Shown: positions 7,424-60,214 of the stretch, in pieces
Position numbering within the stretch: the stretch's first letter is position 1
Layout: each line of letters starts with the position of its first letter
Origin: Minisyncoccota bacterium
GTDB lineage: Bacteria; Patescibacteriota; Minisyncoccia; UBA6257; GWB1-50-10
DNA length: 64,000 bases
Direction of reading: 5' to 3'
Assembly (NCBI GenBank): GCA_041917695.1
Contig: JAYRXE010000037.1
Coordinates: 434,582 to 498,581 of the forward strand
The notes under the pieces: generated by a model
What the model was told of the DNA's origin: nothing
Seen by the model: only the letters and a program-made list of their open reading frames with translations
Databases searched by the model: none
Translations under genes and position numbers: made by a program

Positions 7424-7816
7424 TTATTTGAAATCCACGGTAAAGCTGTACATACCCATCCCGCATACCCCTCGTAAAATTCCCGACTGCGGAATGCCGA
7501 GATCTATCACTTCCTCGCCGTTTTGCGGAAGTATTTTCTGGTAGCCGATTGATCTAATGATGAGCGCTGCCGAACAATCGTATGTCCCGTTCGTTTTCAC
7601 GATGAGTTTGGTCGGTACGTTAGCTTTAGCTACCGAAGCCCGAGGCGAATATCCTCCGCGAGCCGCGATGGTGACGTATTGTACCCCGTTTCGCATTTCC
7701 ACATTCCGGGGCGGATTTGTCTCCTGCGATTCGCGTGGTTTCGCAGAATTGAAAAACATGATGCCGAGCGAGACGAAGACGGCAGCGGCGATAATGCTGA
7801 GAGCGATTTTATTCAT
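7424..7816 (-). CDS. Secreted or anchored cupredoxin-like (Cupredoxin_1-like) protein in the copper operon
   Basis: An N-terminal TM or signal segment is followed by a beta-rich domain ending GTYDCSAAL...GVCGMGMYSFTVDF. The Cys/Met-rich pattern resembles the C-terminus of Cupredoxin_1 proteins, but no His ligands are present. Confidence 0.4.
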   Translation of the reverse strand: MNKIALSIIAAAVFVSLGIMFFNSAKPRESQETNPPRNVEMRNGVQYVTIAARGGYSPRASVAKANVPTKLIVKTNGTYDCSAALIIRSIGYQKILPQNGEEVIDLGIPQSGILRGVCGMGMYSFTVDFK

Positions 7817-7819
7817 GGA

Positions 7820-8827
7820 TTACAGGTTCACGAGCGGACGGATGATCCCCAGTCCCGCCAAACCGGAAAGGAGTGCAAAAAGACCAAGGCCGATAACGAC
7901 CACGCCGACCGACGCAAAAAAGAGCGGCGCATGCTTTCCGCGCGCGAATGATGCCGAACCAAAGGAAAGAAATGCGAGCATGGGTAAGGTACCCAACGCG
8001 AAAGAAAGCATAATGAGAAGCCCTGCCATAAAAGAACCGCTGCTCACCGCCGAAATCTGCATTGATTGCGTAAAACCGCAGGGCAAAAAGAAGGTTGCAA
8101 CGCCCAACGCAAAAGGGGCAAGGGTTTTATGTTCAATCCGCCTCAAAAAGGCGAATGCCCCTGGGGGAAGCACTGCGGTGTTTTTCTTGATCGCACCGAC
8201 GAGATTCAACCCTAATAGTACCATGACAAGAGACGCGAGCAGGCCCAGTACGGCGGCGAGCGTAAAATTAATACCCAGGACGCCTCCCACAGCCCCTAAG
8301 ACGCCGCCTAAAAGTCCGAAACTCACGAGCCTTCCCGCATGGAATAGGGTTACAGTTTTTGTCTCACCGCCCGTTCCCTGCGATAGCTTGGCGGAAAGCG
8401 ACAAAACCAAGCCGCCGACGATGGCCAAACAGCTTGAAACCGAAGCAATAAGCCCAATAAGGAAGCTGGTAACTGGCGTCACTTGCCCGCCAAGGCCGAT
8501 ATTCAAAAGGCCTGATTTTTGAACCAAGAAAAAAAGAACTAAAAATCCGAGCCCGATCGGCAAAGCTTTCCAGAAAACTTCGTTCTTTGGGATATAATCC
8601 GCCTCCCGTTCGACGGATACCGCGTATCCATGGGACTCGATTTTCTTGGTCATCAGTTTTGCAAGCACCTCCGGGGACTGATCAATATGCGTCGCGAGTT
8701 CCAGGGTTTTTTTGCCGAGGTCCACATGCACATCGTGAGCAAAGTCCTGCTCCTTCAGCGTTTCCTCAATGAATATTTTGCACGCCGAGCAATGGGTCCC
8801 CGAAATATGGAAGTGATAGATTTTCAT
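7820..8827 (-). CDS. Heavy-metal-associated (HMA) domain fused to a DsbD_2/CcdA-like polytopic membrane domain
   Basis: The N-terminal HMA fold carries GTHCSACKIFIEETL (a CxxC metal site). The membrane domain carries conserved Cys residues (SVSSCLAIVGG and FFLPCGFTQSMQ). Confidence 0.7.
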   Translation of the reverse strand: MKIYHFHISGTHCSACKIFIEETLKEQDFAHDVHVDLGKKTLELATHIDQSPEVLAKLMTKKIESHGYAVSVEREADYIPKNEVFWKALPIGLGFLVLFFLVQKSGLLNIGLGGQVTPVTSFLIGLIASVSSCLAIVGGLVLSLSAKLSQGTGGETKTVTLFHAGRLVSFGLLGGVLGAVGGVLGINFTLAAVLGLLASLVMVLLGLNLVGAIKKNTAVLPPGAFAFLRRIEHKTLAPFALGVATFFLPCGFTQSMQISAVSSGSFMAGLLIMLSFALGTLPMLAFLSFGSASFARGKHAPLFFASVGVVVIGLGLFALLSGLAGLGIIRPLVNL

Positions 8828-12369: not shown

Positions 12370-12392
12370 AAGAGGGCATATGCCCTCTTTAT
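12370..12392 (-). terminator. Rho-independent terminator after the island ORF
   Basis: aaagagggcatatgccctcttt forms a hairpin, with a minus-strand T-run after it. Confidence 0.55.
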
Positions 12393-12787
12393 TAATGATT
12401 AGAATCAAAGAATCCTTCGTTAACAGATGTTACTAAGCAATGAACCTTTCCCTTTCCAACATCCGTACCGGTATAGCTCCCTACCCAAAACCCATCTGCA
12501 AACTTATCAAAAGAATAATAAATTGCTGAACGGTCTTTATAACATTTTCGGAAACTCATTTTTTTCTCTGAAATACGGAAATTGTAAATATCAGCTTCGC
12601 CGAATTTATCTTTAATGTAACCACACACAGTATGTTCCGGCTGAACGGTCACCATTCCTTGAAAAAAATGATACGGTAAACTATCTTCTCTTACTACACC
12701 AATTCCCGGCTTGATACCAATACCATATGAAAGAATCTCATTGAAATAGAGGCCTTGTAAGAGGTAAATATACTTATCTTCGCGCAA
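12392..12787 (-). CDS. Hypothetical protein on an AT-rich mini-island between direct repeats
   Basis: A 131-aa ORF whose composition is much more AT-rich than the surrounding genes. It has its own terminator and no recognisable family. Confidence 0.45.
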   Translation of the reverse strand: MREDKYIYLLQGLYFNEILSYGIGIKPGIGVVREDSLPYHFFQGMVTVQPEHTVCGYIKDKFGEADIYNFRISEKKMSFRKCYKDRSAIYYSFDKFADGFWVGSYTGTDVGKGKVHCLVTSVNEGFFDSNH

Positions 12788-13565: not shown

Positions 13566-13638
13566 GCTATACTGCTTTTTGAAACGCCCCTATAGCTCAG
13601 TTGGTAGAGCACCTGCCTTTTAAGCAGTGGGTCCTTGG
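13566..13638 (+). tRNA. tRNA-Lys (anticodon UUU)
   Basis: GCCCCTA-TA-GCTC-AGTTGGTA-GAGC-A-CCTGC-CTTTTAA-GCAGT-GGGTC-CTTGG-TTCGAAT-CCAAG-TGGGGGC-A. No CCA. A hairpin plus T-run terminator follows at about 13650-13678. Confidence 0.9.
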
Positions 13639-13925
13639 TTCGAATCCAAGTGGGGGCACTAAAACAAAAACACCCTATCCTATAGGGCGTTTTTGCTCGT
13701 GTGCGCACCAAAGAAGATTCGAATAGGAAAGAATTTCCTAAGATTACTAGGAAAACCCAGGGGTAATAAAGCTCATCTTGACAGGCGCCTCAAAAATTGA
13801 AATACTCGTAAACAGCTCGAAAACAATACCGGAAAGGAGGGTACCATCAAAGACATTCCGAAATAACACCTCAGAGAAATATTTAATTAACCTATTTTAA
13901 AAAATCCTAAAAACAGAGAAAACGT

Positions 13926-17458: not shown

Positions 17459-17557
17459 AAACACCGGCAAACAAGAATATTCATGTCGTCCATTTTGAAA
17501 TCAGCTTTTTGAGATAGAAATACTACCGCATATTTTGCATATGCGATTAAAAAAGAA

Positions 17558-20650
<3,093 letters not shown>

Positions 20651-34509: not shown

Positions 34510-34674
34510 CATAAACATGAACCCACGAAAGATCGTGGGTTCATGCTTCCTACGGGAATCGAACGCGTATGGGGTCGGGAGCGGCGCAACGCTCCCGTGG
34601 AGGAGACGCTTAAGAACCGAGAGGTTCTTAAGGAGCGAAGCGACTTGAGATTTTCCCATATCCCGCACATAAAA
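34510..34674 (+). repeat. tRNA-associated structured repeat element, copy 1 (downstream of tRNA-Gly)
   Basis: Hairpin atgaacccacg-aaagat-cgtgggttcat. Core gggaatcgaacgcgtatggggtcgggagcggcgcaacgctcccgtggaggagacgcttaagaaccgagaggttcttaagg. It ends in a degenerate copy of the tRNA-Gly 3' end (gattttcccatatcccgcacataaaa versus the tRNA's gattcccgtatcccgcacataaa). Homologous copies sit at 43381-43596 and 60046-60214. Confidence 0.7.
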
Positions 34675-34701
34675 CTAAAACCTCCGCATACGCGGAGGTT
34701 T
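34675..34701. terminator. Bidirectional terminator (fusA on the minus strand; the tRNA-Gly unit on the plus strand)
   Basis: cctccgcatacgcggagg forms a hairpin. A T-run follows on the minus strand and tttta on the plus strand. Confidence 0.6.
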
Positions 34702-34712
34702 TAGCTAGATAA

Positions 34713-42380: not shown

Positions 42381-42410
42381 AGCCCACGAATGGGCTTAGA
42401 TGACAACGCA
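42381..42410 (-). terminator. Rho-independent terminator after the AT-rich ORF, immediately upstream of truncated prfB
   Basis: aagcccattcgtgggctt forms a hairpin, followed on the minus strand by ttttttatttttt. Confidence 0.55.
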
Positions 42411-42827
42411 CGCAAAATTGCCGAAAGCGCTTGGCATCAGAAGAATCCACAATGATGAATCCAGTTTATCTGCATGAGTGGCTAGGCAAAAATTTTTGAT
42501 ATCTTCCAGGACTGCATTCTTCCTTTCCTCAAGATTTATTTTTCTCTCGGGATAATCATGCGCGAGAACCAGGATTTCAATCACCTGGGAATGTACGTCC
42601 ATTTTTTTATGTTGCCGAGGCTTTACCTTGATATCTTCGGGCTTGAGGAAGCCTTCCTTTCCTTCTTCCGTTGAGACGGAAAGATGCTTGGAAAGCGTTA
42701 CGGGAAGAAAGCGTGCGAGTTCCTCTGCATCTCCCTTTGCTGATTCCTCGTAGAACATGAATACGTACGGCATTCGAACTCCTTTTTTAAATTTGAAATA
42801 CTGGCTATGTTTTATAGTAAATTCCAC
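42396..42827 (-). CDS. Hypothetical protein (AT-rich island)
   Basis: A 143-aa ORF with low-GC codon usage and its own terminator. No recognisable family, and no similarity to RF2 domain 1. Confidence 0.45.
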   Translation of the reverse strand: MEFTIKHSQYFKFKKGVRMPYVFMFYEESAKGDAEELARFLPVTLSKHLSVSTEEGKEGFLKPEDIKVKPRQHKKMDVHSQVIEILVLAHDYPERKINLEERKNAVLEDIKNFCLATHADKLDSSLWILLMPSAFGNFACVVI

Positions 42828-42862
42828 CAGGAGTCAATTATCCCTAAAAAGAAGAGCCGCAA

Positions 42863-43279
42863 CTATGCGGCTTTCAAAGTATATATCCTTACCTGCTTCA
42901 AATCCCACCAACGACCCTGCCCATTATCAAAAAGAATGCGAGGATCTTTGATCCCTAAATACCTCTCTAATTCCTCAAAGAACGCGGGAGATGAAATGAA
43001 GATGGATGAACTATTCTTATCAGAAAAAAGAGGGCTATCCGCATCTATCTTACCATCCCTGATTACATTAGGGTTCTCAAGCCATAAACCTAATCGATAG
43101 GAAAAAGAGCGCTCTTCTTTCTGGAAAGTAAAATAGAGTTCATCGACCTCGGGAAGAAGGACGGGAATCACTGTCTTAAACATGGACTGACTCATGCCTC
43201 CCCCTCCTCGAATAGAGGATAAAAAAACAGGACAATTATTGATGAGATAAATCACCGCTTCCTTGTGCGAAGTTATCAT
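42863..43279 (-). CDS. Hypothetical protein (AT-rich island)
   Basis: A 138-aa ORF with low-GC codon usage and its own terminator (agccgcaactatgcggct plus a minus-strand T-run at about 42851-42885). Confidence 0.45.
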   Translation of the reverse strand: MITSHKEAVIYLINNCPVFLSSIRGGGGMSQSMFKTVIPVLLPEVDELYFTFQKEERSFSYRLGLWLENPNVIRDGKIDADSPLFSDKNSSSIFISSPAFFEELERYLGIKDPRILFDNGQGRWWDLKQVRIYTLKAA

Positions 43280-43380
43280 TATGCTTCTCCAATAAGTTAT
43301 TAAATTTACTGGATATAAAATAAAATATTTATTAACTTATGTCAAAGTAATTATTCTCTACAATCGAACAATCCGCCGAA

Positions 43381-43596
43381 TGCGCCACTTCGGAATCTCA
43401 TGTCGCTTAAAATACCACTTCAGGAATCTCACAAAATTCCGTATCCACGGAATTTTTTTGAACCCCTCGGTTCCAATTATTCGCTTCGCGAATCCTACGT
43501 CTTGGAAAAACAAGTGTTTTTCCACCGCCTTTTCCCTTCGATTCCGAAATGCTACAGATGTAAAAATACCGTCATAAGACGGTATTTTTACATCTG
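43381..43596 (-). repeat. tRNA-associated structured repeat element, copy 2 (downstream of tRNA-Thr; diverged)
   Basis: A 17-bp perfect hairpin gatgtaaaaataccgtc-ataa-gacggtatttttacatc abuts the tRNA 3' end. It shares blocks with copy 1 (cggaatcgaag, cgaagcga, aaccgaggggttc). It ends in two degenerate copies of the tRNA-Thr 3' end (ccacttcaggaatctca and gccacttcggaatctcatgtcgc). Confidence 0.6.
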
Positions 43597-43669
43597 AGCC
43601 ACTTCCCGGAATCGAACCGGGGACCTTTGCTTTACGAAAGCACTGCTCTACCAGCTGAGCTAAAGTGGC
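43597..43669 (-). tRNA. tRNA-Thr (anticodon CGU)
   Basis: The minus strand reads GCCACTT-TA-GCTC-AGCTGGTA-GAGC-A-GTGCT-TTCGTAA-AGCAA-AGGTC-CCCGG-TTCGATT-CCGGG-AAGTGGC-T. Confidence 0.85.
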
Positions 43670-57587: not shown

Positions 57588-58004
57588 TTATTTGGTGAAA
57601 AAATTTTTCAATGCGGTAGCGATCGCTTCGCAGGCTCCGGGTTTCACAATACGGTCGAATGAAATGACCATAACGATCGCTTCATAGCGGGTAGTGAGAA
57701 ACACGCATCCTTCTTCGTTCGCTTTCCGCTCGTGGAACTCCGAATAACTCGGAATGTCCATTGTGGAAAAAACATGCGGAGATACGTCCGAGCAGATAAT
57801 CACCACCTTTCTCGTGATATGAGGCGGGTTCGGTTCTTTCGCAAAATCATGAAAAGAAACCGTACTGTTTTGGAATGGCTCCGGCAAATTTCCGCCCGCA
57901 CAGAATTCTGCGAACTTTTCATTGAAAAGCTCGTGGTAGGCGGTGGCGACGCTTCCCTTCCCCGACTCTTCCACAAGGAGGATGGGGATGCTGTTTTCTG
58001 CCAT
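57588..58004 (-). CDS. Hypothetical protein
   Basis: 138 aa, with its own terminator and no recognisable family. Confidence 0.4.
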   Translation of the reverse strand: MAENSIPILLVEESGKGSVATAYHELFNEKFAEFCAGGNLPEPFQNSTVSFHDFAKEPNPPHITRKVVIICSDVSPHVFSTMDIPSYSEFHERKANEEGCVFLTTRYEAIVMVISFDRIVKPGACEAIATALKNFFTK

Positions 58005-58108
58005 ATAAAACGCTCCTTTCTGTTTGCGCTACGTGTTAAGCTGGCTGAACTCATGGAACTCCTTTCGGTTTTTGCTGTCAAATAAAAAGCCGCCAGCGGC
58101 GGCTTTGG

Positions 58109-58558
58109 TCATGGAGCGGATACGTGCCCCACGCAATACTCCCGATGCATGGCATCCACGCCCTTCAGAAAAAGAGCATACTCTTCCTCGTCCATGCTCG
58201 TATTCGGACACACCACGAACGGAACGACCCGCTCCAGGTGAAGGATGAGGAAGTTGCCCGTGGACGGATGGGGCGCTACCGACCAGTCATTCGTCTCCTG
58301 CCGTTTGAGATATTCAAGATATTCGCGGTTTCCCACCAATATCCGCGCCTTGCTTCTGAAAAAAAACTCGAATTGCTCCGCAAGGGGCTTGTCTTCGTTC
58401 GAATGGATGATGATATCCGGCCGAGGACGGAACCCGTTCCGCAAACGGGGAACAAAAAAATATTCAATGAACTCCTGGCTTTTTCGTATGTCATTCCGGC
58501 TGTCGGAGCCGTTCACCGGAAAATAAAAAAAGGCAAAGATGTTTATTTCGTTTTCCAT
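58109..58558 (-). CDS. Hypothetical protein
   Basis: 149 aa, with its own terminator (aaagccgccagcggcggcttt at about 58083-58105) and no recognisable family. Confidence 0.4.
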   Translation of the reverse strand: MENEINIFAFFYFPVNGSDSRNDIRKSQEFIEYFFVPRLRNGFRPRPDIIIHSNEDKPLAEQFEFFFRSKARILVGNREYLEYLKRQETNDWSVAPHPSTGNFLILHLERVVPFVVCPNTSMDEEEYALFLKGVDAMHREYCVGHVSAP

Positions 58559-58633
58559 GGCGCCTCCGCGCTTAAATTTTTAAAAAAAATGTTTCTGGAA
58601 AAATTTAACCCCCGATAAACGGGGGTGTCAACT

Positions 58634-58984
58634 TTAGGCAGCTGCGAAAAGCTCTGGCTGTGAAACCTTTTCAAAAAAGGCCATGCATTCATGGAAGTTA
58701 TGCTCTTCCTCAGCCTCGGTGACAGGGATTTCCTTATAATCCTTATCCTCTTTGGCATAGGTATTGAGCACTATCCAAGCTCTCTGCCTGCACTGCTTTT
58801 CAATACTTCGGGGAGGTTCTACATATACATGCGAACCGTAATTTTTGTATCCGATGCGTGTCATTTTCTTCCCATCTTCGCTGACAAGAAAAGTGAACTC
58901 CATAGCCTCGTACGTGACTACGACGGTGCGATGGTTATCGCTTACGGACTCAACATGAATCGGATCAGGAATTTTTGGTTCCAT
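58634..58984 (-). CDS. Hypothetical protein
   Basis: 116 aa, with its own terminator (acccccgataaacgggggt at about 58606-58630) and no recognisable family. Confidence 0.4.
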   Translation of the reverse strand: MEPKIPDPIHVESVSDNHRTVVVTYEAMEFTFLVSEDGKKMTRIGYKNYGSHVYVEPPRSIEKQCRQRAWIVLNTYAKEDKDYKEIPVTEAEEEHNFHECMAFFEKVSQPELFAAA

Positions 58985-59146
58985 GATTATCTCCTTTTGA
59001 TTAATTAATATTTACTGTTTTTATTATACCATACGAAGCATATAAAAGTCAATAATTCCAAAGTTTTGTCAAGGTGTCCTACCCAGCTCTGACGCAACGG
59101 AAGAGTATAATGGGTGCAAAGGTCGAGAAAAGCTATTTTTAAAAAA

Positions 59147-59476
59147 ATGAAGAAACTTTTCGTGGTTTTGAGCGTAATGGCAATGATGTTCAGCCTCTCT
59201 TCGGTCGCCCTCGCAGGCGGCGGAAGCTCGCAGGTCTCCTACACGTACTACGATACGCAGGCGGACTATGCGAACGGCGTTGGCACGGCAGTCACCTGCA
59301 ACCCGACGAGCCCCTCCGGCGACTACATCACCTGCTTCATTGACGATGAGGATCGCGCCTGGGGCATTGTGGTCGATACCGACCGCGCCTGGGGCATTGT
59401 CGTCGACGATCGCGCCTGGGGCATTGTCGTTGATACCGATGGCAAATCCTTCGGCATTGTCGTTGATACCGACTAA
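59147..59476 (+). CDS. Secreted small protein with four tandem DRAWGIVVDTD-like repeats
   Basis: Signal peptide MKKLFVVLSVMAMMFSLSSVALA. A Cys-containing segment (TCNPTSPSGDYITCF) precedes DRAWGIVVDTD, RAWGIVVDD, RAWGIVVDTD and GKSFGIVVDTD. A strong terminator follows (aaaaaactccttcgggagtttttt at about 59489-59520). Confidence 0.55.
   Translation: MKKLFVVLSVMAMMFSLSSVALAGGGSSQVSYTYYDTQADYANGVGTAVTCNPTSPSGDYITCFIDDEDRAWGIVVDTDRAWGIVVDDRAWGIVVDTDGKSFGIVVDTD
59351..59473 (+). repeat. Tandem in-frame DNA repeats (about 27-33 bp, four units) within the secreted peptide gene
   Basis: cgcgcctggggcattgt(g/c)gt(c/t)ga... occurs three times, followed by a diverged fourth unit ggcaaatccttcggcattgtcgttgataccgac. 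Confidence 0.7.
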
Positions 59477-59639
59477 TTCCGTTTTTTCGGAAAACAAAAA
59501 ACTCCTTCGGGAGTTTTTTGTTTTGAGCGCCATCGTGGAGCCCACCGGCCGGCAGATAGGGATGTTAGAATCGGATTGTGGCTTGGGGGTAATAAAAAAG
59601 AGGGGTCTTAATCCCTCTTTCTGACTCAATGCTTAAAAC

Positions 59640-60008
59640 CTAATGATTCATAACGTACCAACTTTTGTACGCACGTAAATTTTTCTTTGAGAGTTCTTTT
59701 TCGGGGTAAGGACCTACTATTTTTGATGGCATAAGATTCATTTGGGATCTCTGTTGATCTCTAAATAATAGCTCAGGATCTGAATCGGACTGAGCTAATA
59801 CAATTACATTATTTATATTTGTAGCCCCTAAGCACTTATGCTTTTTTGCTTGATTGATTAATGCAGTGATATATTCTCGTATATCTTGTGATATCGTAGA
59901 TTTAAACAACTCCTCAAAAAATTTAAATTTAATTTTTTTCATTTCACTTTTTAAAATTATTAAAAAAATATCTGCAAGCAAAATACTACAAATCATAGCT
60001 TCTGTCAA
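59640..60008 (-). CDS. Hypothetical protein (AT-rich)
   Basis: A 122-aa ORF whose sequence is markedly AT-rich. It lies between the secreted repeat peptide and the tRNA-Glu-associated repeat. Confidence 0.4.
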   Translation of the reverse strand: MTEAMICSILLADIFLIILKSEMKKIKFKFFEELFKSTISQDIREYITALINQAKKHKCLGATNINNVIVLAQSDSDPELLFRDQQRSQMNLMPSKIVGPYPEKELSKKNLRAYKSWYVMNH

Positions 60009-60045: not shown

Positions 60046-60214
60046 ATTTAGCCCACGGGAAATCTCACGTCGTCACTCCGCTCCTCCTTAAGAACCCACG
60101 GTTCTTAAAAGATTTCCTCCACGGGAGCGTTGCGCCGCTCCCGACCCCATACGCTTCGATTCCCTGAGCACCCACACTAAAACAACTCCTTGAAAGGAGT
60201 TGTTTTAGTGTAAG
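60046..60214 (-). repeat. tRNA-associated structured repeat element, copy 3 (downstream of tRNA-Glu)
   Basis: The reverse complement of 60086-60164 is gggaatcgaagcgtatggggtcgggagcggcgcaacgctcccgtggaggaaatcttttaagaaccgtgggttcttaagg. This is nearly identical to copy 1 and includes a perfect 38-nt run. The element ends in a degenerate copy of the tRNA-Glu 3' end (agcccacgggaaatctcacgtcg). Adjacent to the tRNA is a 15-bp-stem hairpin aaaacaactcc-ttgaaa-ggagttgtttt. Confidence 0.7.

Follow-up and report, generated by a model that had tools for sequence, protein, structure and literature searches.

The 64-kb window, that is, the whole stretch of DNA analysed, carries six tRNA genes, and the feature described here lies directly 3' of one of these, the gene for tRNA-Thr (anticodon CGT). 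Read along the minus strand, the tRNA gene is followed by a perfect hairpin, by a structured segment of about 135 nt and by two degenerate copies of the tRNA-Thr 3' end located some 165-216 nt from the end of the tRNA. The hairpin and the two degenerate copies had been described in a first reading of the sequence alone (the sequence-only reading). The first of these pseudo-3'-ends is a degenerate direct copy of the 3' strand of the T-stem and the 3' strand of the acceptor stem, and the second was recovered by a repeat finder as a direct copy of the tRNA-Thr 3' end (repeat D2). The structured segment is preceded by a 5' arm, which is an inverted copy of the T-loop, the T-stem 3' strand and the start of the acceptor strand of the same tRNA. 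According to the repeat finder, this arm matches positions 43607-43616 of the tRNA gene in inverted orientation at 10 of 10 positions (repeat I5) and pairs over 12 nt, at 92%, with positions 43386-43397 of the second pseudo-3'-end (repeat I2). The core folds with a z-score of -5.0. All parts of the locus, together with the two sister copies in the window, are listed in Table 1.

Table 1. Parts of the tRNA-Thr locus in minus-strand order and the sister copies of the element in the window
Feature	Position	Strand	Basis
tRNA-Thr gene (anticodon CGT)	43596-43669	minus	ARAGORN; Rfam tRNA, 65.6 bits
t1, segment of tRNA-Thr from T-loop to 3' end, copied in the arms of the element	~43597-43618		
Imperfect palindrome (repeat I1)	43546-43573 / 43578-43605		repeat I1
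Perfect 19-bp hairpin with 4-nt loop (arms 43555-43573 / 43578-43596), directly 3' of tRNA-Thr	43555-43596	minus	fold
5' arm (t2'), CATTTCGGAATCGAA	43537-43551	minus	inverted repeats I5 and I2; family-wide rule
Core of the Thr copy, as matched by the family model	43418-43550	minus	cmsearch, full-length; fold; inverted repeats I3 and I4
Hairpin P2	43503-43524	minus	
Extra hairpin, peculiar to the Thr copy	~43478-43492	minus	
Hairpin P3 (GGAACCGAGGGGTTC)	43460-43474	minus	
Hairpin P4	43433-43456	minus	
First 3' arm/pseudo-3'-end, GTGAGATTCCTGAAGTGGTAT (GTGAGATTCC + TGAAGTGGTAT)	43412-43432	minus	sequence; model alignment
Octamer AAGCGACA	43401-43408	minus	sequence; family consensus GAGCGACG
Second 3' arm/pseudo-3'-end, TGAGATTCCGAAGTGGCGCA (TGAGATTCC-GAAGTGGCGCA)	43381-43400	minus	direct repeat D2; inverted repeat I2
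Sister copy at tRNA-Gly (CCC)	34550-34675	plus	cmsearch, 74.8 bits; sequence
Terminator-like hairpins flanking the Gly copy	34517-34544; 34676-34704		
Sister copy at tRNA-Glu (CTC)	60054-60168	minus	cmsearch, 79.2 bits

The hairpin directly behind the tRNA had been described as a perfect stem of 17 bp. The corresponding arms (43557-43573 and 43578-43594) are real, however, the perfect stem comprises 19 bp (-29 kcal/mol; z = -10.5 against shuffled sequences) and, if mismatches are allowed, reaches arms of 28 nt with 86% complementarity. The 19-bp hairpin is the centre of an imperfect palindrome that joins the 3' end of tRNA-Thr to the 5' arm of the element. It was not called as an intrinsic terminator because no T-run follows the stem. 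At most other loci an equivalent hairpin occupies the spacer in the form of an A-run, a stem and a T-run.

The sequence-only reading had also proposed the motif aaaatacc as a common recombinase recognition motif. The motif occurs 10 times in the window where 2.0 occurrences are expected, and this excess sits in AT-rich, terminator-like hairpins. It was present in only 4 of 75 spacers between tRNA and element, the spacer hairpin differs at every locus, and the words most commonly shared by the spacers are A/T runs, as is typical of intrinsic terminators. In addition, aaaatacc occurs in an ordinary terminator downstream of one further copy (L128), and a search of the window with a covariance model identified no element at the tRNA-Asn flank. 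To judge by its distribution, aaaatacc is generic terminator sequence rather than a recognition site. Its over-representation is also what could be put forward for the view that the locus holds nothing special, only a terminator hairpin and chance similarity with aaaatacc as the common recognition motif. We regard this view as almost certainly wrong; it is refuted by the significant model match and the covariation in P2 and P3 described below, by a family of hundreds of copies, and by the rarity of the motif in the spacers.

The covariance model (R1) comprised 77 copies from other genomes and the Gly and Glu copies of the window, with the Thr copy left out. On the window it matched the Thr core over the full length of the model (positions 1-123) with 40.1 bits and an E-value of 2.6e-8, the next best match in the window scoring 12.8 bits. 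The Thr segment had been taken for a diverged copy of the element at tRNA-Gly and tRNA-Glu, and the match confirms this relationship. Among the sequence blocks said to be shared, cggaatcgaag and aaccgaggggttc occupy homologous sites in the copies at tRNA-Gly and tRNA-Glu, whereas cgaagcga is present but its position is not homologous. The Glu and Gly copies are about 90% identical over their aligned cores (0.90), including an exact match of 38 nt, and differ in their arms. In the Gly copy, 5' arm and core are followed by a 3' arm in which the end of tRNA-Gly is repeated together with a trailer of 8 nt, the whole being flanked by two terminator-like hairpins. The Thr copy is marked by an AT-rich P2, one extra hairpin and a P4 of the type AAAATT...AATTTTG, which characterizes a subfamily (L101, L157, L181). 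It combines the full-length match with a complementary 5' arm, a 3' arm that copies the tRNA, and a direct repeat of the 3' part of the tRNA that flanks the insert while the tRNA itself is intact. The feature at tRNA-Thr is a decayed, partly duplicated copy of a repeat unit common in Patescibacteria. The window may hold a further, decayed remnant at tRNA-Lys.

The partial duplication is apparent from the octamer AAGCGACA, which corresponds to the last 8 nt of the family core and precedes the second pseudo-3'-end; a related locus (L002) carries AAGCGACG where the Thr locus has the octamer. As AAGCGACA is the 3' terminus of the core, a second tandem unit is likely to have once stood at tRNA-Thr and to have been mostly deleted later, leaving this stump. 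The suggestion that the two pseudo-3'-ends reflect a repetition was therefore well founded. Full tandem units occur elsewhere, with two clear units at a period of 151 nt in one case (L158), repeated 3' arms are seen at three loci (L166, L174, L206), and decayed or truncated copies exist as well (L197). A 2-nt deletion relative to the tRNA is common to the Thr 5' arm and the second pseudo-3'-end. Signs that the two arms co-evolved or share a common descent are few, and this deletion is one of them.

Patescibacteria are ultra-small bacteria with tiny genomes and few recognised mobile elements. In their genomes and in metagenomes the model found more than 200 matches, and the loci retrieved contained 137 core matches. 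When one genome per species was scanned with a degenerate pattern, 120 stretches were obtained, about 45 of which were accepted by the model. Nearly all of the accepted stretches were labelled as Patescibacteria (Paceibacteria, Saccharibacteria, Jorgensen-, Taylor-, Colwell- and Moraniibacteria, Minisyncoccia), the exceptions being three MAGs labelled Bdellovibrionales or Gammaproteobacteria and a few unlabelled stretches. A pattern restricted to the core matched at least 120 metagenome contigs and not one of 2.9 million viral contigs; another pattern scan of viral contigs gave only two matches, both by chance and in coding sequence. When the 4227 Rfam families, including ribozymes, omega-RNA/HEARO, retron-associated, tRNA-like and integrase-associated RNAs, were searched at the gathering threshold, only tRNAs, 23S and 5S rRNA were detected in the window. 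In E-value mode the Thr and Gly copies returned only noise, such as miRNA and terminator-like matches, and seven other loci returned nothing. No description of the element was found in the literature. The family is thus apparently undescribed and mostly confined to Patescibacteria. In kind it resembles integrative and repeat elements that target tRNA genes, but the architecture of its arms is unusual.

Over the family, the parts follow a common order. The gene end, consisting of the segments X and Y and usually equipped with a hairpin of A-run, stem and T-run, is followed by an inverted X, a purine-rich joiner (CGAAGGA or AGCGGAG), GGGGTC, P2, GTGnnGGAG, P3 with the invariant GAACCGnGGGTTC, a variable P4, GAGCGACG, X again, the rest of the gene end and another terminator. 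The insert measures 150-250 nt without an ORF, the core about 100 nt, and some 45-80 nt separate the T-loop from the 5' edge of the element. P2 and P3 occupy invariant positions, whereas the third hairpin, P4, is usual but variable. In P2 and P3, 95.4% of the positions are paired, and changes on both sides occurred in 349 cells compared to 94 in shuffled alignments; with slid partners as a control the covariation collapsed. A tRNA gene on the same strand within 600 nt upstream was present for 80 of the 137 core matches, representing 19 tRNA species, and in 80 copies the 5' side of the element faces the tRNA 3' end, with the reverse orientation in a single copy.

These properties could also be those of a structured non-coding RNA with a host or a selfish function, produced by read-through from the tRNA. 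The closing stem would then mimic an acceptor/T-stem minihelix from which tRNA-processing enzymes could excise the RNA, and the core would form a four-way junction with a protein or ligand as its binding partner. P2 and P3 covary and are joined by invariant, unpaired strands rich in purines, a combination that is a classic signature of functional RNA, and the 80:1 co-orientation with the upstream gene as well as fold z-scores of -2.8 to -5 fit this explanation. At tRNAs, the 5' arm equals by complementarity the acceptor 5' strand and the T-stem 5' strand, so that the closing stem resembles the top half of a tRNA, and the tandem G.A pairs within it look like an RNA motif. However, the element sits behind a terminator-like hairpin; such hairpins were seen on both sides of the unit, and no conserved promoter was seen. 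No stem shows an excess of G.U pairs: these make up about 1.2% of the stem cells, which is not above other mismatches, and in P1, the stem formed by the 5' and 3' arms, 91 G.T mismatches occur next to 71 A.C mismatches. Compensatory change between the two arms was found at only 2 of 130 variable positions. Furthermore, copies decay (L197), no Rfam family was matched, and an RNA leaves the duplicated in-frame gene ends at GAPDH and rplL (see below) unexplained. We therefore consider a transcribed RNA somewhat unlikely. Because of the lacking G.U excess, the flanking terminators without a conserved promoter and the missing compensatory change in the arms, a role at the DNA level, as a folded single strand, is favoured over a transcribed RNA with moderate confidence.

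In contrast to the core, the arms vary with the gene next to which a copy lies. Each local variant of T-loop and T-stem is matched by a 5' arm that is its reverse complement: T-loop/T-stem sequences TTCGATTCC, TTCGAATCC, TTCAATTCC and TCCGACTCC are accompanied by the 5' arms GGAATCGAA, GGATTCGAA, GGAATTGAA and GGAGTCGGA, respectively. At least 11 of the last 13 nt of the copy's own tRNA are present in the 3' arm in 42 of 71 copies but in none of 793 pairings with other tRNAs, and in clean tRNA copies (e.g., L157) the direct repeat stops exactly at the 3' end of the tRNA. Arm boundaries were set by alignment of the arms, as calling them with RNAduplex proved too noisy. In most cases the 5' arm corresponds to the local tRNA, whereas the T-loop portion of the 3' arm is frequently of a family or element type. 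Many 3' arms carry a fixed change from TC to GA at tRNA positions 55-56, which results in the tandem G.A pairs. Within one genome, cores located at different tRNAs often reach identities of 0.85-0.96, compared to a 95th percentile of 0.79 among pairs taken from different genomes. The Gly and Glu copies of the window (0.90) and the pair L238/L231 (0.95) are examples, and their arms differ. Near-identical cores with unrelated arms could be due to gene conversion or to a retargeting mechanism.

Such cores would also be in line with a guide-bearing mobile element in the manner of TnpB omega-RNA, IS110 bridge RNA or transposon homing guides. An enzyme guided by RNA or DNA and encoded elsewhere would then steer insertion to a site beside the matching gene end, and the arms would be rewritten with each move. 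Here, a copy of tRNA positions 57-76 (20 nt) borders directly on the scaffold, and the TTC that stands before these positions in the genuine tRNA reads TGA in most 3' arms, as if self-targeting were avoided; the distance of the 5' edge of the element from the T-loop and the near-identical cores with different arms within one genome point in the same direction. This explanation is nevertheless improbable, as non-tRNA sites show no conserved motif ahead of the target segment, the two arms would mask the guide by pairing with one another, no nuclease or transposase is linked, and the long (57-93 nt), diverged and in-frame duplicated gene ends are left unexplained. The likeness to these systems is that of a conserved multi-hairpin scaffold directly beside about 20 nt of flank or target (TnpB/IscB omega-RNA, IS110 bridge RNA); with retron ncRNA, the element shares a closing stem (a1/a2) around stem-loops and a variable hairpin. 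It differs from both in that no TnpB, IscB, IS110 recombinase or reverse transcriptase is adjacent and no Rfam family matches, in its mutually pairing arms, and in the long duplicated gene ends.

The sequence-only reading had missed that the arms are inverted and direct copies of the end of the gene beside them, and that the family is widespread in Patescibacteria and extends beyond tRNAs. Copies with the common plan were found at the 3' end of the GAPDH gene (L159, L247) and of rplL (L132), in the promoter region upstream of a NUDIX gene (L131), at terminator hairpins (L134 type) and at a locus upstream of secA. Direct repeats measure 20-93 nt over the family, and the long duplicated gene ends 57-93 nt. 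At GAPDH, the two copies of the gene end are about 70% identical, and each keeps the reading frame and a stop codon. This strongly suggests that the downstream copy is a displaced orthologous end and not a fresh target-site duplication.

A direct repeat that runs from the T-loop to the 3' end of a tRNA and leaves the tRNA intact is the textbook signature of T-loop-targeting integrases. The copies might thus represent attL/attR scars of integrase-carrying islands that target this segment, the core being the attP arm region, to which integrase and accessory proteins bind, left behind after an internal deletion, in a way similar to cis-mobilisable elements. The anatomy of the direct repeats, the tandem accretion and the variable cassettes beside the pseudo-ends agree with such an origin, and at one tRNA-Trp (L141) an ordinary 10-kb island occupies the same tRNA as the element. 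However, this island does not use the junctions of the element, no integrase was found adjoining any copy, and the core pattern is absent from the 2.9 million viral contigs. Covariation in hairpins is not expected for double-stranded, protein-binding arms, and a single sequence-specific integrase could not recognise more than 20 unrelated targets, which include protein-gene ends and a promoter region. Such scars are thus an improbable source of the copies. An ORF of 375 aa at the edge of the L141 island encodes, according to Pfam, a ClpP-like protease and not an integrase.

Linked enzymes were sought among the genes downstream of the copies. Clustering of 124 downstream ORFs from 62 loci gave only housekeeping families, with no enrichment of recombinases, transposases or reverse transcriptases. 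Among the 39 window proteins that were scanned, 22 received a Pfam name, none of them that of a recombinase, transposase or reverse transcriptase, and 17 had no match; ORFs of the island gave no such enzyme by Pfam either. Likewise, no gene for TnpB/IscB, an IS110 recombinase or a reverse transcriptase lay beside any copy examined. Exact-protein look-ups (xseB, EF-G, Mur ligase) yielded no empty site, as every relative either carries the element or is on a contig that ends in it, and neither a circle junction nor an autonomous relative was found. As no enzyme gene is linked, we read the unit as non-autonomous.

The explanation that we tentatively favour, at slightly below an even chance, is a non-autonomous unit of X, Y, inverted X and core that was inserted into conserved gene ends through recombination and probably works in the form of folded single-stranded DNA. 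The unit comprises X, a segment from the 3' part of a conserved gene that for tRNAs starts at the T-loop, Y, the remaining gene end with its terminator-like hairpin, the inverted X and the core of about 100 nt; the native X-Y of the host gene follows directly downstream. The gene end brought by the unit keeps the host gene intact, and the former end survives downstream as pseudo-3'-end. As the simplest route, incoming DNA with the gene end of another lineage may have recombined with the chromosome inside X, and this DNA could be a small circle that integrates in a Campbell-type manner or transforming DNA. Core and inverted arm would act as folded single-stranded DNA, recognised by a host or element function in trans. 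At tRNA-Thr, at least two entry events, or a tandem duplication followed by a deletion, would have given rise to the two pseudo-ends, which may later have served as entry points for variable cassettes of small genes.

Recombination in X leaves two observations unexplained, namely the inverted copy of X and the occurrence of arms for more than 20 targets with one core. In addition, an inverted arm that follows the local tRNA is not expected if the arm is purely element-borne. Another reading is that of a new kind of enzyme-less mobile element that can be retargeted, its scaffold being copied to new conserved genes with freshly templated inverted and direct arms. Retargeting could run via a folded single-stranded DNA intermediate, or a viroid-like or retro-copied RNA intermediate, together with conserved host machinery. 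We consider this unlikely, but if true it would represent a targeting principle that has not been described for bacterial repeats. Several known copying and insertion mechanisms were considered and discarded. Snap-back or self-primed copying and tRNA-primed reverse transcription predict an order and orientation of the copies that do not fit, IS200/IS605-type insertion would require a conserved target tetranucleotide that is lacking, the element is far too small for a group IIC intron, and the differences between copies are not adenine-specific as in diversity-generating retroelements.

The tentatively favoured entry of a non-autonomous unit into gene ends has parallels in known systems. With tRNA-targeting islands and their integrase-less derivatives (cis-mobilisable elements, arrays of the tycheposon type) the element shares the direct repeat from T-loop to 3' end, an element-borne 3' end that keeps the tRNA intact, the displacement of the old end downstream, tandem accretion, and variable small-gene cassettes beside the repeats. 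It differs in its size of only 150-250 nt, the lack of a nearby integrase, the hairpin-rich conserved core and the inverted target copy, and in that the ends of protein genes, a promoter region and terminator hairpins are among its targets. Integron attC sites and the attP(+) hairpin of CTX phage, the latter used by host XerCD, are similarly non-coding, rely on structure more than on sequence and are recombined in trans; in both, a stem formed by inverted segments reproduces a target-like duplex, and conservation of the stem is Watson-Crick only. Unlike attC, the element has no R/L boxes or extrahelical bases, and its centre is conserved whereas that of attC is variable. It also has no dif-like site, and no link to IntI or Xer was found. 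An assignment as attC site (R''/L''...L'/R' with RYYYAAC / GTTRRRY) was rejected, since the arm ends of the tRNA type (ATCGAAC / GTTCGAT) are only an approximation of the boxes and non-tRNA copies have none. Bacterial MITEs and REP/REPIN sequences (Correia, ERIC, BOX, RAYT-mobilised REPINs) resemble the element in being short, non-coding, extragenic, present in many copies and able to form hairpins, and they are often located just behind genes. However, their terminal inverted repeats belong to the repeat itself and do not change from locus to locus, and the target duplications that go with them measure a few bp. The element was therefore not classified as a MITE, as its inverted arms differ from locus to locus and equal the neighbouring gene, and its direct repeats of 20-93 nt can be diverged orthologous ends.

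In several classes of Patescibacteria, copies of the unit stand next to many tRNA genes and also next to some core protein genes. If it is mobile, it shows that DNA can enter essential, conserved genes harmlessly and without an enzyme of its own, and the target-tracking arms would hint at a programmable recognition step. If it is an RNA instead, it represents a common, uncatalogued class of structured RNAs linked to tRNA genes. The repeats probably explain the breaks of Patescibacteria assemblies at tRNA genes, and the pseudo-ends created by the unit appear to seed strain-variable gene cassettes.

With respect to the latter, a strain variant of the Thr locus (L002/L005/L006) is identical up to TTCCGAAG within the second pseudo-3'-end. 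Beyond this point its sequence departs, with some 110 nt, an additional pseudo-end (CCGCGAAGTGGTTGAGAG) and small-ORF cassettes that are not the same. The breakpoint inside the pseudo-end suggests that pseudo-end sites are recurrent points of recombination. Separately, several assemblies were observed to break at tRNA-Thr.

The hairpin core of the element was also found away from tRNA genes, with its arms copied from the 3' ends of protein-coding genes or from other local sequence (see table). At the loci upstream of secA the copied target, GTGGAGGGCGGCGGCACTC...CCGTCCTCCACA, resembles the terminal part of a small structured RNA, and no Rfam family matched it. In the hairpin-flanked subfamily, a GC-rich hairpin is followed by the core and then by a long hairpin that holds a diverged copy of the GC-rich one. 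The core is in effect framed by duplicates of a terminator-like hairpin, one on each side. No conserved neighbouring gene was found among the seven loci of this subfamily.

Features in the window and at loci fetched from other genomes and metagenomes (L-numbers)
Feature	Location	Position relative to genes
Small low-GC ORFs, of 138 and 143 aa	window 42396-43345	from element at tRNA-Thr to prfB
Low-GC small ORFs	window 57588-60008	from tRNA-Glu element to tpiA
Low-GC small ORFs	window 12392-12787	adjoining tRNA-Asn
GTGTGCGCACCAAAGAAGATTCGAAT then AGGAAAG	window 13699-13724	past terminator of tRNA-Lys (13586-13659, plus)
Element copies, typical form	L038 555-675; L128 2069-2189; L123 753-859	at tRNA-Gly / tRNA-Gln
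Same core, arms from GAPDH 3' end	L159, L247	
Same core, arms from rplL 3' end	L132	
Same core, arms copied locally	L131, L219, L227	upstream of NUDIX gene
Same core, arms copied locally	L145, L154, L172, L193, L207, L212	upstream of secA
Hairpin-flanked subfamily	L134, L136, L161, L168, L180, L192, L225	
Island, roughly 10 kb	L141 1936-12195	very 3' end of tRNA-Trp

The metagenome-assembled genomes carrying the typical copies in L038, L128 and L123 are labelled Bdellovibrionales (two) and Gammaproteobacteria (one); either these bins are mislabelled or the element has spread beyond Patescibacteria.

Within the tRNA-rich locus L167 (10 kb, 11 tRNA genes), the covariance model of the element family gave five hits, which adjoin Ser, Ser and Ala tRNAs, and none at seven other tRNAs there. 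The hit at 7734-7876 lies in reverse orientation relative to the tRNA-Ser that it faces.

The small ORFs between tRNA-Thr and prfB are each closed by a terminator hairpin, and at least the first has a TTGACA-type promoter of its own; neither ORF had a Pfam match. Close strains differ in their ORF set at this site: the relative L002 (2040-3600) encodes ORFs of 50 and 179 aa and lacks the 143-aa ORF, and the edges of the variable cassettes coincide with terminator T-runs and the promoter -35 region. The stretches beside tRNA-Glu and tRNA-Asn have a GC content of 0.41-0.47, compared with about 0.55, and their small ORFs were likewise without Pfam match; the tRNA-Asn stretch contains no copy of the element. 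Independent assemblies of close relatives (L003, L004, L007, L008, L254, L255) stop within or just past tRNA-Thr, the Gly element or tRNA-Glu, suggesting that repeats and strain variation at these sites cause the breaks.

The L141 island is inserted after tRNA-Trp and before the spacer hairpin of the element, is flanked on both sides by a CCCCGC(C) repeat, and is missing from the otherwise identical locus L143. At the island edge, the 375-aa ORF encodes a ClpP-like protease and not an integrase.

The segment in the tRNA-Lys flank looks like a decayed inverted tRNA-Lys 3' end followed by the purine-rich joiner of the element. No core follows it, as a search of the window with the covariance model gave no match there; the segment may be the remnant of a lost copy.

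Finally, the Rfam search of the window matched 23S rRNA at 17553-20643, which at 3091 nt exceeds the 2925-position model and therefore holds about 170 nt of extra sequence.
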